42,083 nucleotides of DNA from Minisyncoccota bacterium (lineage in GTDB: Bacteria; Patescibacteriota; Minisyncoccia; Phycocordibacterales; DSPV01): NCBI GenBank assembly GCA_036517235.1, contig DATDXL010000001.1, forward strand, positions 1 through 42,083, given 5' to 3'. The notes under the pieces were generated by a model. That model saw only the letters and a list, made by a program, of their open reading frames with translations. It made no database searches and was not told the DNA's origin. Position 1 is the stretch's first letter, and each line of letters begins with the position of its first letter. The position numbers and the translations under genes are program-made. Below, one piece after another: positions 35,324-42,083 of the stretch.

Positions 35324-37345
35324 ATGGACCAACTGTTTTTGAACATCAGCAATCCTTTCATGCTCTTTGCACTCATCGCCGCCGTAGTGGCTATTGTGTA
35401 CGGCTTGCTGCTAGCACGTACCATATTCAAGAGAAGCCCCGGTAATGCCCGCATGCAAGAGATATCTGATGCGATACGCCAGGGTGCGAAAGCATACCTC
35501 AACCGACAATATAAGACCATCGGAGCCATCGCTCTCGTCCTTTTCATCATCTTATGGGCAGCACTGGATCTGCGCGTGGCGCTTGGATTTATTATCGGAG
35601 CATGCTTCAGTGCGCTTGCGGGCTACATTGGCATGAACGTCTCGGTGCGCACGAATGTGCGTACCGCGGAAGCCGCACGCCAGGGACTTGCCCCAGCGCT
35701 CTTGCTCGCATTTCTGGGCGGAAGCGTGACAGGACTCCTTGTCGTGGGATTGGCACTTCTTGGTGTCGCCGGATTTTATGCGATTACGGGAGATGTAAAA
35801 TCTCTTATCGGACTTGGCTTTGGGGCAAGCCTCATTTCAGTATTCGCTCGTCTTGGAGGTGGCATTTTCACCAAAGCAGCTGACGTCGGCGCTGACCTCG
35901 TTGGGAAAGTGGAAGCGGGGATCCCCGAGGATGACCCCAGGAACCCTGCCGTCATCGCTGACAACGTCGGTGACAACGTCGGTGACTGCGCGGGTATGGC
36001 AGCCGATCTTTTTGAAACCTACGTGGTAACCCTGGTTGCAACCGCGCTTCTCGGTCACCTTATCTTCCCAAACTTTGCCGGAGCAATCATCTATCCGATC
36101 GCCCTTGGCGGAACCGCCATTATCGCTTCTATCATTGGAATGTGGTTCGTCCGTCTCGGCAAGAGTCAAAACATCATGGGAGCGCTCTACAAGGGTCTTA
36201 TCGCTGCCGGTATCCTCTCTGCAATTTCCTTTTATCCTCTCACTAAAGTCCTCATGGAGGGAAATGGCCTCTACACAACGACCAACCTCTTCATCGCCGC
36301 GCTCGTGGGACTTCTCGTAACCGCAGCGTTCGTCATCATTACTGAATATTACACCTCAACAAAATATAAACCGGTACAGTCTATAGCCAAGGCATCACTT
36401 TCTGGGCATGGCACAAACATCATCCAGGGGCTTGCGGTTTCCATGAAAGCAACTGCTTTGCCTTTGATTACCATCGTTGCGGGAATTCTTATCACCTACC
36501 ACGTGGCAGGTCTCTATGGTATCGCGATCGCCGCGATGTCGATGCTCTCGATGGCGGGCATCATCGTCGCTATTGACGCGTATGGACCTATCACCGACAA
36601 CGCGGGGGGTATCGCTGAAATGGCAGAACTCCCTAAAGAAGTGCGCGATGTCACCGACCCCCTTGACGCGGTAGGAAATACAACCAAGGCGGTAACTAAG
36701 GGTTACGCTATCGGTTCTGCGGCATTGGCAGCACTTGTGCTTTTTGCCGCGTACACGCAAGAATTTGCTTCTCTCGGAAAAGAACTGGTCTTTGCCCTTG
36801 GCGACCCCAAAGTCATCGTGGGACTTTTCGTAGGAGGTCTTCTCCCCTACTACTTCGCAGCTCTCGCGATGGAAGCGGTGGGAAAAACCGCCGGAGAAGT
36901 CGTCAATGAGGTGCGAAGACAGTTCAGAGAGATAAAAGGCATCATGGAGGGCAAGGCGAAACCGGATTACGCGCGAGCAGTTGATATAGTCACCGGTGCC
37001 GCAATCAAACAAATGGTGCTTCCTGCTCTTATACCAGTGCTCGCGCCGATCATTGTCGGTTTTACGCTTGGACCTGTGGCGCTGGGCGGATTGCTCGTCG
37101 GCTCCATCATCACAGGGCTATTCGTCGCCATTTCTATGACATCTGGAGGCGGTGCATGGGATAATGCGAAGAAGTACATCGAGGCAGGAAATTTTGGAGG
37201 AAAGGGTTCTGACGCGCACAAAGCGGCCATCACCGGCGACACGGTAGGAGACCCGTACAAAGATACGGCTGGGCCAGCGATAAACCCCATGATTAAGATA
37301 TTAAACATCGTAGCGTTACTATTGGTAGGTTTTCTTGCTAAATAA
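35324..37345 (+). CDS. hppA: Membrane-bound proton/sodium-translocating pyrophosphatase
   Basis: 673 aa from the ATG at 35324, with [37 protein letters not shown] and [14 protein letters not shown] motifs. Confidence 0.95.
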
Positions 37346-37473: not shown

Positions 37474-37563
37474 TACAAAGATACTGCTGGGCCAGCTATC
37501 AATCCGATGATAAAGATATTGAATATTGTAGCCCTACTGCTTGTTGGATTCCTAGCGAAGTAG
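37474..37563 (+). pseudogene. Displaced duplicate of the last 29 codons plus stop of hppA
   Basis: It translates to [29 protein letters not shown], identical to the hppA C-terminus. 19 of 29 sense codons and the stop codon differ at the nucleotide level. There is no start codon, and an in-frame TGA lies at 37423. Confidence 0.8.
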
Positions 37564-39809: not shown

Positions 39810-40811
39810 TTAGGACTTTGGGCTTGGTGCTTCCAGCTTCTTTCTTACTATAAGCTCCAGCCTTTTGGCTTTGGAATGAGATAGCATTCCAAGATACGAC
39901 GGAAGGTTCTTTCCATTCACACACGAAAGCATGCGGTGCTTTGTTCTTGTCCTTAAAACTGTCCGATGCGGAAGAACGACGTATCCGAGAAAATCAACGC
40001 CTTGCCTTAATTTTCTAATCTCTATTTTCACCGGATGAAGCGAGAGAAATAATCGTTCGCGCAGAAATACTACGATATATCGTAGTATTTCTGTAAGCGA
40101 CGGGTCATCGGAAAAAATAAACACAAAATCGTCGCAGTAGCGGATATAGTATTTCTGTCTGAGTCTGTGCTTTATGAACTGGTCGAGCTCGTTAAGGTAA
40201 ATGTTGGAAAACAACTGGCTCGTGACATTGCCGAGCGGTAAACCCTTTCCACTGCTCGTCTCAAAAGACCTGACGATATGCACAACGAGCCCGAATAGCC
40301 TCTCGTCGGCTACCTTTTCGCGGATGAGTGAAAGAAGAATATGGTGGTCTATTGAATCAAAGAACTTCTTGATGTCACATTTGAGCACATAACCCTGTCG
40401 TCGAAAATTTGAAGTAACCTTTTGAGCAAAAATCTGGAGACGTTCTACGCCTGCATGGGTACCCTTTAGGTTTCGGGAAGAATAGGAGTCGTGGATAAAC
40501 GACGGGTCAAAAACGCCGTAGAGCCTTCGATACACTGCTTGAAAGAGCACTCGGTCTCTGACACTCGCTTTATGGATACGACGCAACTTAGGATCACGAA
40601 CGAAAAAAGATACGTATGGCTCGGGCTTCCATGTCCCTTGTGCTAGACTTTCATGGAGGGCGAAGAGCTCACCCTCAAGAGTAAGTTCAAATGCCGCAAT
40701 GTCCGATTTCTTTCGTTTTCCTCTGGCAAACTCGCGCCAAGCCGCAAAAAGATTTGGAAGTGAGATTACATCACAAAAACTAATACTATGATGACCCCCC
40801 CCCAACGACAC
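39810..40811 (-). CDS. DGR-type reverse transcriptase
   Basis: 333 aa with RT motifs KCDIKKFFDSIDH, LPLGNVTSQLFSNIYL (the DGR-typical [IL]GxxxSQ) and YIRYCDDFVFIF (YxDD). GTG start at 40811. The start is uncertain. Confidence 0.9.
   Translation of the reverse strand: MSLGGGHHSISFCDVISLPNLFAAWREFARGKRKKSDIAAFELTLEGELFALHESLAQGTWKPEPYVSFFVRDPKLRRIHKASVRDRVLFQAVYRRLYGVFDPSFIHDSYSSRNLKGTHAGVERLQIFAQKVTSNFRRQGYVLKCDIKKFFDSIDHHILLSLIREKVADERLFGLVVHIVRSFETSSGKGLPLGNVTSQLFSNIYLNELDQFIKHRLRQKYYIRYCDDFVFIFSDDPSLTEILRYIVVFLRERLFLSLHPVKIEIRKLRQGVDFLGYVVLPHRTVLRTRTKHRMLSCVNGKNLPSYLGMLSHSKAKRLELIVRKKLEAPSPKS
40062..40093. repeat. 32-bp perfect palindrome CAGAAATACTACGATA/TATCGTAGTATTTCTG inside the RT coding sequence
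   Basis: Verified self-complementary. It encodes TEILRYIVVFLRE and shares the 14-bp core TACGATATATCGTA with the palindromes at 24822 and 25305. Confidence 0.8.
40795..40803 (-). repeat. Homopolymer G9 (C9 on the plus strand) at codons 3-6 of the RT
   Basis: The plus strand reads ATGACCCCCCCCCAACG. On the coding strand it is GTG TCG TTG GGG GGG GGT. Confidence 0.8.
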
Positions 40812-40836
40812 CCTACCGATTATACATGCGATAAGA

Positions 40837-41151
40837 ATGCTGCATTTGGAGATTTACCGCATCGGTAAGAAACTGCCGAAGGGCGATAAGCTAGGCATTC
40901 ACGCGGAAGTTGAAAGGAAATGTTTCAAACTTCTCTCATGTTCCATAGAAGCCGCATATAGACCAAGAAAGGAAAAAACGGAAACGCTCGTGGAACTTCG
41001 CTTAACAACAGAAGTACTGAAGAATATCTGGCGCACAGAATGCGAACTTGGGATTGTGGATGAAAAGACCTATCTGCGCATCGCAGAGAAAATGGTAGAG
41101 ATATCAAAGATGACAAATGGTTGGATAACCTACACGCAAAAAGGAGCGTGA
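40837..41151 (+). CDS. avd: Avd-like four-helix-bundle accessory protein (23S rRNA IVS protein family)
   Basis: 104 aa. LEIYRIGKKLPKGDKLGIHAEVERKCFKLLSCSIEAA...LVELRLTTEVLKNIW...ISKMTNGWI follows the four-helix-bundle/Avd pattern. It lies on the strand opposite to TR and RT. Confidence 0.7.
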   Translation: MLHLEIYRIGKKLPKGDKLGIHAEVERKCFKLLSCSIEAAYRPRKEKTETLVELRLTTEVLKNIWRTECELGIVDEKTYLRIAEKMVEISKMTNGWITYTQKGA

Positions 41152-41170
41152 AAGCTCCTTTGATGCGAGA

Positions 41171-41276
41171 AACTTCGGGACGAAACCGCACGTTATCATT
41201 GGCATTGTCCAGATTCCAGTCGTTGACCTTCACCTTGCTATCGTTGAAGTTCACGTTCGGCACGTTACCGTCTGCG
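41171..41276 (-). repeat. DGR template repeat (TR)
   Basis: 41177-41276 aligns without gaps to 41513-41612. At all 20 mismatches this copy has A on the minus strand. Its translation NVPNVNFNDSKVKVNDWNLDNANDNVRFRP has 9 AAY codons. Confidence 0.9.
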
Positions 41277-41440
41277 ATTCGTTTTACCTCATTCCGTCCG
41301 TATCTCCGAGAATATTTCACAAAATTCTCTGTGTCCCACTCGGGGTACTCCGATCATGGTATGGAACAAGGCAAGCAGTTTCTTTGTGTGTGACCAATCG
41401 CCATACGCTTTAGCGGACCGACTGCACAGTCAACGTTAGT

Positions 41441-41472
41441 ATAGAAAATGCACCCTGATTGCTCAAGGTGCA
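41441..41472 (-). terminator. Hairpin plus T run about 20 nt after the target-gene stop
   Basis: On the minus strand, TGCACC-12 nt-GGTGCA is followed by TTTTCTAT. It could be a terminator or a VR-proximal structural element. Confidence 0.35.
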
Positions 41473-41491
41473 CGTGTGAAGAGTACAAGGG

Positions 41492-42083
41492 TTAAGAAGG
41501 AAGGTAAACTGTGGGACGAAACCGCACGAAATCACAGGCATGGCCCAGAGACCAGCCGTCGACCTTCACCCCGCCATCGCCGAAGTCCACGCGCGGCACG
41601 CCACCGTCTGCGGTTTCCGATTCGGCGCACATTGTCACCACCGCTCGATCCAGGAGCTTCTTGGAAGCGTTCTCCAAAAACACATCGGCGCCGAGCACCA
41701 GGCGAACCGGCAAGGTAGTCGTCCGGAGCCCAAACGGGGCAAGGGAGCGCACCGTGCGAGTGTTTACGTTGACGCCACCAAGTTTGCCGAACGGCGCTTC
41801 GTCATCATCCGCAACCCAGCAGCCGAAAGTACCGGTGACGTTGTGCTTTGGCACCGCTTCGTCCAAACTGGTGCTTCCGGAAAATTTCCAATGGTTGCAA
41901 GTGCCAGCCATCAGTTTTTCGTTGGCGCGGTAGAGAAGCTCCGAAGAGTTTCCTTTTTCGTGCATAACAATCAGGCGGGCTTTGAAGTGAGTTGGTGGCT
42001 TCGGAATCGGCAGTGCGGCAAAATCGGTATTGGTGCCATAGACCGTCTTCCACCGTCCTTCCCAGTGCTTCGCCAGCTCTGAT
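41492..42083 (-). CDS. DGR target protein, 5'-truncated by the window edge, with a C-terminal variable region
   Basis: The frame stays open from the window end to the TAA at 41492-41494, with no stop upstream of the listed Met. The last ~35 aa (ADGGVPRVDFGDGGVKVDGWSLGHACDFVRFRP) are encoded by the VR. Confidence 0.8.
   Translation of the reverse strand, partial: SELAKHWEGRWKTVYGTNTDFAALPIPKPPTHFKARLIVMHEKGNSSELLYRANEKLMAGTCNHWKFSGSTSLDEAVPKHNVTGTFGCWVADDDEAPFGKLGGVNVNTRTVRSLAPFGLRTTTLPVRLVLGADVFLENASKKLLDRAVVTMCAESETADGGVPRVDFGDGGVKVDGWSLGHACDFVRFRPTVYLPS
41507..41612 (-). repeat. DGR variable repeat (VR)
   Basis: It matches the TR at 80 of 100 positions (41513-41612). Substitutions occur only opposite TR adenines. 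It ends 15-20 nt before the target stop codon. Confidence 0.9.

Follow-up and report, generated by a model that had tools for sequence, protein, structure and literature searches.

Diversity-generating retroelements (DGRs) have been catalogued in their thousands, and Paul et al. (2017) reportedly gave the first survey of those carried by the Candidate Phyla Radiation (CPR). Architecture B3, i.e. template repeat (TR)-(avd)-reverse transcriptase (RT) with avd reversed, makes up 90% of the DGRs in CPR (Wu et al. 2018, PMC5758913), while DGR clade 2 is restricted to Patescibacteria and the CPR targets are proteins devoid of recognisable domains (Roux et al. 2021, PMC8144416). Here, we describe an element of this kind in a 42,083-nt stretch (contig DATDXL010000001.1, forward strand; the whole stretch is hereafter called the window) from a Minisyncoccota bacterium of the Patescibacteriota. 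Read along the minus strand, it consists of a target gene with a C-terminal variable repeat (VR), the TR, an inverted avd and a DGR-type RT gene. The likeness to the CPR elements (B3 of Wu et al., clade 2 of Roux et al.) extends to the host group, the gene order, the inverted avd, the cellular rather than phage context, the C-terminal position of VR in a small domainless protein and the mismatches confined to adenines, and we found no difference that would exclude membership. Thus, the B3 gene order, together with the CPR host and the correspondence to clade 2, makes it a member of a known and well-populated DGR kind.

We hold it very probable that the element is a chromosomal DGR of the Patescibacteria (CPR) clade that is active or was so recently. 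A TR/VR pair is to be expected in a CPR bacterium, and the gene order is the standard one for CPR DGRs; what raises the interest above that of the repeat pair itself are the leader RNA, the poly-G tract and the domainless target. The parts of the cassette are as follows:

41492-42083, minus strand: target gene (its 3' two-thirds), running off the window end; window fragment HEY4498472.1
41506-41612 (core 41513-41612), minus strand: VR, the last ~35 codons of the target
41170-41276, minus strand: TR, invariant in all ten contigs compared; its last adenines, a1 (41175) and a2 (41174), lie inside GAAGTTTC
40837/40846-41151, plus strand (opposite to TR and RT, and between them): avd, by a bAvd match
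39810-40811, minus strand: RT gene, 333 aa from GTG 40811, with TTG 40805 as alternative start

Repeat pair, associated proteins and population variation

A preliminary description of this DNA, made from its letters and open reading frames (ORFs), had reported an ungapped 100-bp alignment with 80 identities and mismatches falling on adenines only, and this was borne out on realignment. The stretches 41177-41276 and 41513-41612 (offset 336) agree at 80 of 100 positions, and all 20 mismatches are a T on the plus strand (A on the minus, coding strand) in the former copy, so that 20 of the 29 adenines of the TR core are substituted and none of its 71 non-adenine positions (hypergeometric P = 1.9e-14 for the confinement of 20 of 20 core mismatches to 29 adenines). 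The VR has G in place of 13 of these adenines, T in place of four and C in place of three. An independent repeat search returned the same pair (41170-41279 / 41506-41615, 79%). Read in frame with the minus-strand ORF whose end is at 41492, VR has 13 of the 33 full codons altered, every one of them nonsynonymously; exactly as previously described, these comprise all nine AAY codons (N to G, R, D, G, D, S, H, C and F) as well as one Ser, one Lys and two Asp codons. Nearly all core adenines (28 of 29) occupy codon position 1 or 2, and three TR codons (two AAG, one GAA) can be converted to stops by adenine mutagenesis.

The homology between the copies reaches 41170/41506, which brings the full repeat to 107 nt and its TR-adenine positions to 31. 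Within this extension beyond the core, 41175 is the 21st adenine substitution (A to C) and 41176 (G in TR, A in VR) is the sole non-adenine mismatch of the full repeat in the window. Searches with the TR (A read as N, at most 8% mismatch) recovered no further VR copies in the window or in ~20 kb of flanking sequence from the parent contigs. The TR copy lies outside any gene: an ORF that crosses it (40925-41320, minus strand) was rejected as a gene, as it runs antisense through avd and is unsupported.

The RT was recognised by Pfam as RVT_1 (E = 2e-21), and its best match among solved structures (E = 6e-36 over residues 12-292) was 8ub7_A, a 328-aa reverse transcriptase represented by nine cryogenic electron microscopy (cryo-EM) entries, which we take to be the bRT of the Bordetella phage. 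The motif LGNVTSQLF aligns with IGSLTSQLF of 8ub7_A (DGR motif xGxxxSQ), and matches to other RT classes were weaker (group II intron RT 6ar1, 3e-20; retron-type RT, 2e-17). For Avd, the Pfam family bAvd (PF22296) scored 40.0 bits (E = 6e-10), equal to its cut-off, and the NCBIfam model DivGenRetAVD scored 41.6 bits, under the equivalog cut-off of 80. In the parent contigs avd was called as a 101-aa protein with a bAvd match. The ATG at 40837 owes its existence to the base at 40839 and reads ATA in every other contig that covers it; hence TTG 40846 (101 aa) is the likelier start.

Related RT loci number at least 540 in species-representative genomes. Among the best 80, which were examined (45-64% identity) and are nearly all from Patescibacteria metagenome-assembled genomes, 53 have an adenine-biased TR/VR pair at the same place upstream of RT, and avd lies antisense between TR and RT in 34 of the 34 with a detectable Avd.

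The population variation of VR was assessed in ten contigs from different samples, i.e. the window, L001 (ENA contig ERZ27254767 k141_1816244, 68,961 bp), L002-L008 and L089. Over ~12,300 positions the window and L001 differ at two (40839 and 41405), both inside the DGR cassette; the latter falls within the leader RNA described below. Outside VR the ten contigs are identical over ~2.8 kb, save for three scattered single-base changes, two confined to the window (40839 and 41405) and one to L008 (41637), homopolymer length and contig-end artefacts. The VR, by contrast to these flanks, comes in three haplotypes: A (window, L001, L008), B (L002, L003) and C (L004-L007, L089), and a metagenome scan for more alleles yielded one further contig, with haplotype C. 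The haplotypes differ at 17 positions in 41556-41602; TR has an adenine at 16 of these and a G at the remaining one (41590). Counted against the 107-nt TR, adenines are substituted 21 times in haplotype A, 15 times in B and 20 times in C, and other bases differ once, once and twice, respectively. In haplotype C a TR AAG has become TAG (equivalent to window 41570-41572), which cuts the target to 251 aa.

That flanks of ~2.8 kb stay identical around a VR that differs at 17 sites indicates repeated adenine-specific rewriting, faster than the handful of neutral substitutions in the flanks. The variation among strains that the preliminary description had proposed to look for is thus found at the VR positions and supports recent activity, while its assignment of the minus strand as coding, of 41177-41276 as donor and of 41513-41612 as recipient is backed by the DGR-type RT, by Avd and by the population variation of VR. 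Ten near-identical contigs with three VR alleles, one of them bearing a stop made by the element, amount to a natural experiment on DGR activity in an uncultivated lineage.

Several observations weigh against an element that is at work as described. The call of activity is drawn from three consensus haplotypes taken from assemblies; the premature-stop haplotype occurs in five aligned contigs and is the consensus allele in several samples; two contigs have a G10 tract at the start of RT (see below), so that part of the population may have its RT switched off; the Avd assignment stands only at the Pfam threshold, with no sequence match in PDB; and all haplotypes carry the same eight substitutions in the 3' 47 nt of VR, differing only 5' of them. 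This last pattern, uniform at the 3' part and differing at the 5' part, is the opposite of what the classical Bordetella model predicts, namely a 3' end that is rewritten every time, with the boundary fixed on that side and variable on the 5' side (Wu et al. 2018, PMC5758913), and could reflect selection on the 3' residues, conversion of internal patches or recombination between strains. The out-of-frame RT of the G10 contigs, the stop-bearing consensus and the shared 3' half of VR would likewise suit a fossil DGR, in which the TR/VR pair is real, retrohoming has stopped and old VR differences were spread as haplotypes by ordinary strain recombination. Such a history is nevertheless highly unlikely, as the cassette is otherwise identical over the very ~2.8 kb in which 17 sites of VR vary, 16 being TR adenines, and as the RT, Avd, TR and leader RNA of the window are all intact. 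Another explanation, with no retroelement involved, is that a gene fragment was duplicated and its copies diverged, their one-base bias arising by chance or by strand-specific mutation; it has in its favour that a direct repeat exists and nothing more. We consider it refuted and its probability practically nil: the mismatches keep to adenines to an extent that chance does not provide (the P value given above), they reach G, T and C and so go beyond one transition type, RT and Avd adjoin the repeats, the same arrangement recurs in 53 related loci, and the TR copy resides in no gene.

Leader RNA and the 3' end of the template repeat

In the phage BPP-1 element, cryo-EM resolved a 7-bp template:primer duplex between TR and the spacer (Sp), with G57 and C58 coming after the priming A56, a cPRT Stop duplex of ~13 bp made by TR-upstream sequence with Sp, and a stem-loop with adenosines; moreover, an Avd-binding stem-loop just downstream of TR was predicted in 207 of 278 DGRs, those of CPR included (Handa et al., bioRxiv 10.1101/2023.10.23.563531). 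In the locus described here, comparable features were found around TR, mostly on its upstream side:

41282-41431, minus strand: leader of the TR RNA (covariance-model match 41282-41407; 5' hairpin P1 to ~41423)
41383-41377, minus strand: primer-like leader strand AGAAACU, which pairs with the TR 3' end
41376-41375, minus strand: invariant G and C of the leader, following the AGAAACU strand
41371-41363 with 41295-41287, minus strand: leader helix Pa, 10-12 bp, ending ~10 nt before TR
41359-41336 and 41328-41309 (Pb), minus strand: leader hairpins predicted by RNAalifold
41168-41174, minus strand: TR 3'-end strand AGUUUCU, which pairs with leader 41383-41377
41135-41161, minus strand: post-TR hairpin (8-bp stem 41161-41154/41147-41140, 6-nt loop) and U-run

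The region from the post-VR hairpin to TR proved conserved when the window was aligned with 18 relatives, and RNAalifold folded it into a 7-bp long-range helix (leader (A)GAAACU with AGUUUC(U) of the TR 3' end), helix Pa and hairpin Pb. A covariance model of the leader (R1) had 32 matches in 81 sources, never more than one to a locus and each lying immediately before a TR, of which 13 were in loci that had taken no part in model building; the window itself scored 87.7 bits (E = 5.6e-17). In the leader alignment, which was fitted to its model, 92.9% of the cells were paired, 19 of 20 pairs had double changes and none of 500 shuffles ranked as high (slid controls 0.09-0.17 vs 0.757 observed). 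For the long-range helix the TR-side strand was anchored independently of the leader, and pairing within the own locus held in 202 of 217 cells, a value that 0 of 20000 permutations reached. The compensatory variants comprise GACAC/GUGUC, GAAAUU/AAUUUC, GACAUU/AAUGUC and all four closing pairs, and are spread over eleven loci (L012, L017, L087, L037, L041, L013, L049, L029, L031, L032 and L014). As these changes in the leader compensate those at the TR end, the GAAGTTTC strand is part of an RNA helix.

The minimum free energy fold of the window's own 295 nt (41431-41137) yields every one of the helices. The single-sequence fold of 41100-41520 has no significant excess of stability over shuffles (z = -1.7), and the evidence for structure therefore rests on covariation. 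Rfam returned no RNA family (at E up to 1 near the cassette, and at gathering thresholds over the whole window), and ARAGORN no tRNA. The post-TR hairpin starts 6 nt past the 7-nt pairing strand and holds, on the other strand, the avd stop codon in its loop; a hairpin with a T-run within ~40 nt after TR is present in 46 of 53 related loci, with stem sequences that are unrelated to one another. Its position is that of the Avd-binding stem-loop reported just downstream of TR. We note that Wu et al. 2018, Roux et al. 2021 and Handa et al. make no mention of a structured leader 5' of TR, of a pairing between it and the TR end, of a poly-G tract where RT starts or of CTT repeats after VR (for the last two, see below), a comparison made without Paul et al. 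2017.

Set beside BPP-1 (mtd-avd-TR-brt), the locus has in common a homologous RT, an Avd homologue and the adenine-specific transfer from TR to VR; a duplex of 7 bp at the 3' end of TR, with G and C after it; a second duplex, of 10-13 bp, that stops just short of TR on its upstream side; a stem-loop with adenosines; and a stem-loop directly downstream of TR. The differences concern the gene order, with avd inverted here, and above all the placement of the RNA elements: in the phage, the primer, stop-duplex and RT-binding elements sit in a 140-nt spacer downstream of TR, whereas here the equivalent strands are upstream, and all that lies 3' of TR is the hairpin with its U-run. Furthermore, the post-VR hairpin stands ~35 nt from VR and is followed by a T-run, and the target is no phage tail fibre. 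Structures at the positions of the Handa elements (post-TR stem-loop, duplex at the TR 3' end, duplex ending upstream of TR) are thus present and covary, with a connectivity permuted relative to that of the phage RNA. We propose, by analogy and from the covariation, that the RNA of this clade is a circular permutation of the phage DGR RNA, in which the primer-side strand, the analogue of the stop duplex (Pa) and the stem-loop with an A-rich segment would all be 5' of TR. Circular permutation would also explain why an inverted avd abuts TR.

Retrons offer a second point of comparison: their msr-msd RNA has a1/a2 inverted repeats and a branching G, from the 2'-OH of which the RT primes. Judged by its predicted pairing, the TR RNA would resemble them in topology only, a 5' strand pairing with the 3' end of the template and a conserved G following directly. 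The RT described here belongs to the DGR clade (retron models score far lower), and retrons differ further in that VR targeting and adenine mutagenesis are features of the present element.

The pairing strand bears on the initiation of mutagenic homing (IMH), which has a loose operational definition as an imperfect TR-VR repeat past the A-to-N zone with a GC-rich start (Wu et al. 2018, PMC5758913). According to the preliminary description, an A-free block of 16 nt is common to both copies and is followed by two differing positions (AC in VR, GA in TR) and AGTTT, an arrangement that we confirmed in the sequence, and it was there read as an IMH/IMH* pair that fixes the direction of information flow. 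The loose definition does fit, inasmuch as a GC-rich A-free 16-mer and then an imperfect repeat are present. The notion of fixed differences fits less well: adenine substitution persists 3' of the 16-mer (at 41175), which leaves AGTTTC alone as common sequence, and BPP-1 has an IMH of 34 bp for which there is no counterpart here, adenine substitutions extending to within 6 nt of the homology end. Across 24 related elements, whose TR terminates in GAAGTTTC or a slight variant of it, the VR shows a1 (window 41175) replaced in 22 cases and a2 in 6, of which about three are 1-nt indel offsets (~3/21 otherwise), against 56% for the other TR adenines. Being substituted in 22 of 24 relatives, 41175 is subject to ordinary adenine mutagenesis, and the reported contrast of AC with GA breaks down into an adenine substitution and a non-adenine change at the junction.

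The AGTTTC(T) sequence is the TR-side strand of the covarying 7-bp helix with the upstream leader, and the conservation of GAAGTTTC is owed in part to the x-V-S that the target family keeps at its C-terminus. Its interpretation as an IMH-like DNA motif was set aside, given that the compensatory changes with the leader reveal the strand of an RNA helix. With 41175 explained by mutagenesis and AGTTTC(T) by the helix, it is unlikely that the 2-nt difference discriminates donor from recipient; more likely, the two are told apart by the RNA context of TR (leader and 3' hairpin, which VR lacks) and by sequence peculiar to the downstream side of VR.

The region between VR and the leader contains three further features:

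41474-41505 (41474-41512 for the CTT(G) motifs), minus strand: pyrimidine-rich CTT-repeat stretch, reaching from the final codons of the target across its stop into the 3' untranslated region
41448-41473, minus strand: GC-containing hairpin (11 pairs, loop of 4) with a T-run after VR, tail TTTCTATACT, from a terminator scan
41438-41466, minus strand: promoter-like site TTGAGC-17-TATACT, from a promoter scan, directly after the post-VR hairpin

The 70 nt that follow the window VR hold six CTT, as CTT(G) motifs spaced 7-8 nt apart. In the relatives the mean per 70 nt is 4.8 after VR, 2.0 after TR and 1.5 in random windows; at least five CTT follow VR in 31 of 53 loci (vs 2.5% of random windows), with a spacing peak at 7-8 nt, and the CTT-rich stretch has no counterpart after TR. 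The CTT(G) repeats may therefore be a candidate mark of the recipient site. Hairpins comparable to 41448-41473 come after VR in most related loci; this one is terminator-like, and it may be the positional analogue of the post-VR inverted repeat of other DGRs (GC-rich inverted repeats lie downstream of VR in 34% of DGRs; Wu et al. 2018, PMC5758913) or, equally, a terminator. At the place of the promoter-like site, T-rich and TATAAT-like k-mers are enriched in the relatives, which suggests 41438-41466 as the candidate promoter of the TR RNA.

Poly-G tract and proposed mechanism

The 5' end of the RT gene contains a homopolymer:

40795-40803, minus strand (C9 on plus): poly-G tract G9 at the 5' end of the RT ORF, its first G ending TTG 40805-40803

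The ORF starts GTG TCG TTG and goes on with the remainder of the tract, which is the only G/C homopolymer of at least 8 in the 42-kb window. Its length is G9 in the window, L001 and L006 and G10 in L002 and L005, while L004 has an N gap there; G9 and G10 occur independently of the VR haplotype. With G10 the start codons are out of frame, and gene callers then give an N-terminally truncated RT of 241 aa. In 64 of 81 loci a tract of G7-12 is found at the equivalent position, at a distance of 23-65 nt ahead of the conserved N-terminus of RT; the lengths cluster at G9 (22 loci) and G10 (23 loci), and in most loci there is no canonical in-frame start between the tract and the conserved N-terminus. 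Among loci in which the first G closes a TTG or GTG, that codon is in frame in 8 of 11 with G9 and in 1 of 10 with G10 or G11 (Fisher p = 0.005).

The tract also overlaps the predicted start of the divergent avd transcript. A promoter was predicted for avd (ATTACA-16-TATGAT, plus strand, region 40765-40826), and a TATAAT box for RT was located by eye (40819-40824, minus strand); the two candidates face each other across the poly-G/C tract, which would make the transcripts overlap at their 5' ends. Given this candidate box, the RT mRNA would have nearly no leader.

Poly-G tracts in the 5' coding region are characteristic of phase-variable genes of Neisseria and Campylobacter (PMC5084427, PMC6321876). 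The tract of the RT gene resembles those of such contingency genes in its G9-G10 length and its position after the start codon, in the ±1 lengths within one population and in the out-of-frame lengths that are common among relatives; it differs in that the gene controlled is the RT of a DGR in a CPR bacterium, and that its switching is a prediction from sequence. Hence, the G9/G10 tract looks like a contingency locus by which RT, and with it hypermutation, would be switched on and off; the alternatives are poly-G sequencing error and transcriptional or translational slippage. Text searches returned no description of a DGR with a homopolymer, a poly-G tract or phase variation in the searchable literature, outside of which fall Paul et al. 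2017 and one 2026 preprint. Stochastic on/off hypermutation, if true, would be a new layer of DGR regulation.

We reason that these features may work together as follows. A discrete RNA of ~295 nt (~41431 to 41137) would be transcribed from its own promoter after the target terminator, end at the post-TR hairpin and be bound by RT and Avd. Synthesis of cDNA would start at the first adenine of GAAG (41175, a1), beside the leader:TR duplex; the sharp drop in substitution from a1 to a2 fits a cDNA start opposite a1. The adenine-mutagenised cDNA would then replace VR, recoding up to ~15 codons of the 277-aa protein, while the G9/G10 tract probably toggles the translation of RT. Such an RNA architecture around TR would explain how an element that has no downstream spacer could prime its cDNA, and it gives a testable start site and primer strand; with RT gated by a phase-variable poly-G, only a subpopulation would hypermutate at any time. 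Taken as a whole, the scheme (a permuted RNA throughout the clade, its ~150-nt leader also holding the RT-binding helices, leader priming from the first A of the conserved GAAGUUUC, a terminal Avd/terminator hairpin and a poly-G-gated RT) is put forward tentatively, as a possibility to which we give appreciable credence, short of calling it probable.

Some observations speak against a cDNA start fixed by the leader. In L013 and L014 a2, which is inside the helix, is substituted, and several VRs have 1-nt indels at the junction, so that the start site is not absolute; the post-TR hairpin, moreover, may be a mere bidirectional terminator common to the convergent avd. These two loci are also what one would expect if the leader:TR helix were real and purely architectural, folding the RNA for the binding of RT-Avd, with priming at the 3' hairpin/U-tail or at a nick (Naorem et al. 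are said to have a model with priming from a nick). The covariation that backs helix and leader is silent on priming, VR homology runs through AGTTTC, and the hairpin provides a free 3' end 6 nt downstream of the pairing strand. What such a reading leaves unexplained is the drop of substitution at the very edge of the helix (a1 22/24, a2 ~3/21) and the succession of a 7-bp helix, G/C, a 10-12-bp helix, a stem-loop and an A-rich stretch, which matches the phage RNA element for element; we regard it as doubtful, albeit with real weight. As for the tract, Illumina chemistry struggles with poly-G, one scaffold has its N gap exactly there, and about half of the related loci lack an in-frame start upstream of the tract, the true start being perhaps misjudged; the length differences might consequently be sequencing or assembly noise, and the tract a 5'-untranslated or RNA element or a compositional quirk. 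We deem this unlikely, since the tract is kept in 64 of 81 loci although the RTs are ~45-64% identical, is the sole G/C run of such length in 42 kb and clusters at lengths of 9 and 10, and since frame and length are associated (p = 0.005) in a setting where most loci have no canonical downstream start.

Target protein and flanking genes

The full target protein, known from L001 (8487-9320), has 277 aa, and its start is equivalent to window position 42325. Neither Pfam nor NCBIfam had a match for it (nor Pfam for 60 family members), and a profile search against PDB gave no meaningful one; a match to TseN (E = 0.011) was dismissed, as it covers only the poorly conserved N-terminal helices. The close family consists of 8 clusters and includes Candidatus Taylorbacteria, while a profile search extended it to 252 clusters at 50% identity, mostly of ~240 aa, which have the C-terminal ~195 residues in common and the motif HLD..N.TLCAGSR..DG.VP.V.W....G.V.V.W..P.....LR.R..VS. 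AlphaFold reached a predicted local distance difference test score (pLDDT) of 31 with 8 input sequences; the model used, from 30 sequences, has a pLDDT of 78.9 (~90 over residues 80-277). Searched with this model, Foldseek found nothing below E = 0.6 in PDB and nothing in BFVD, its one hint being C-type lectin domains (probability 0.2, template modelling score 0.37), which is weak and non-significant. The substrate of diversification in these symbiotic bacteria thus belongs to a family that comprises at least 252 clusters and for which Pfam, PDB and fold searches gave no match.

The genes that flank the element encode NusA, an H+-pyrophosphatase, trigger factor, RNase Y and ClpP, and such ordinary housekeeping surroundings indicate that it is chromosomal. 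Unrelated to the DGR, the last 29 codons and the stop of the H+-pyrophosphatase gene (37256-37345, plus strand) are repeated 218 nt downstream, at 37474-37563, with 23 nucleotide differences that are all synonymous. This repeat looks like what remains of the 3' end of another, diverged allele, e.g. after a gene replacement.

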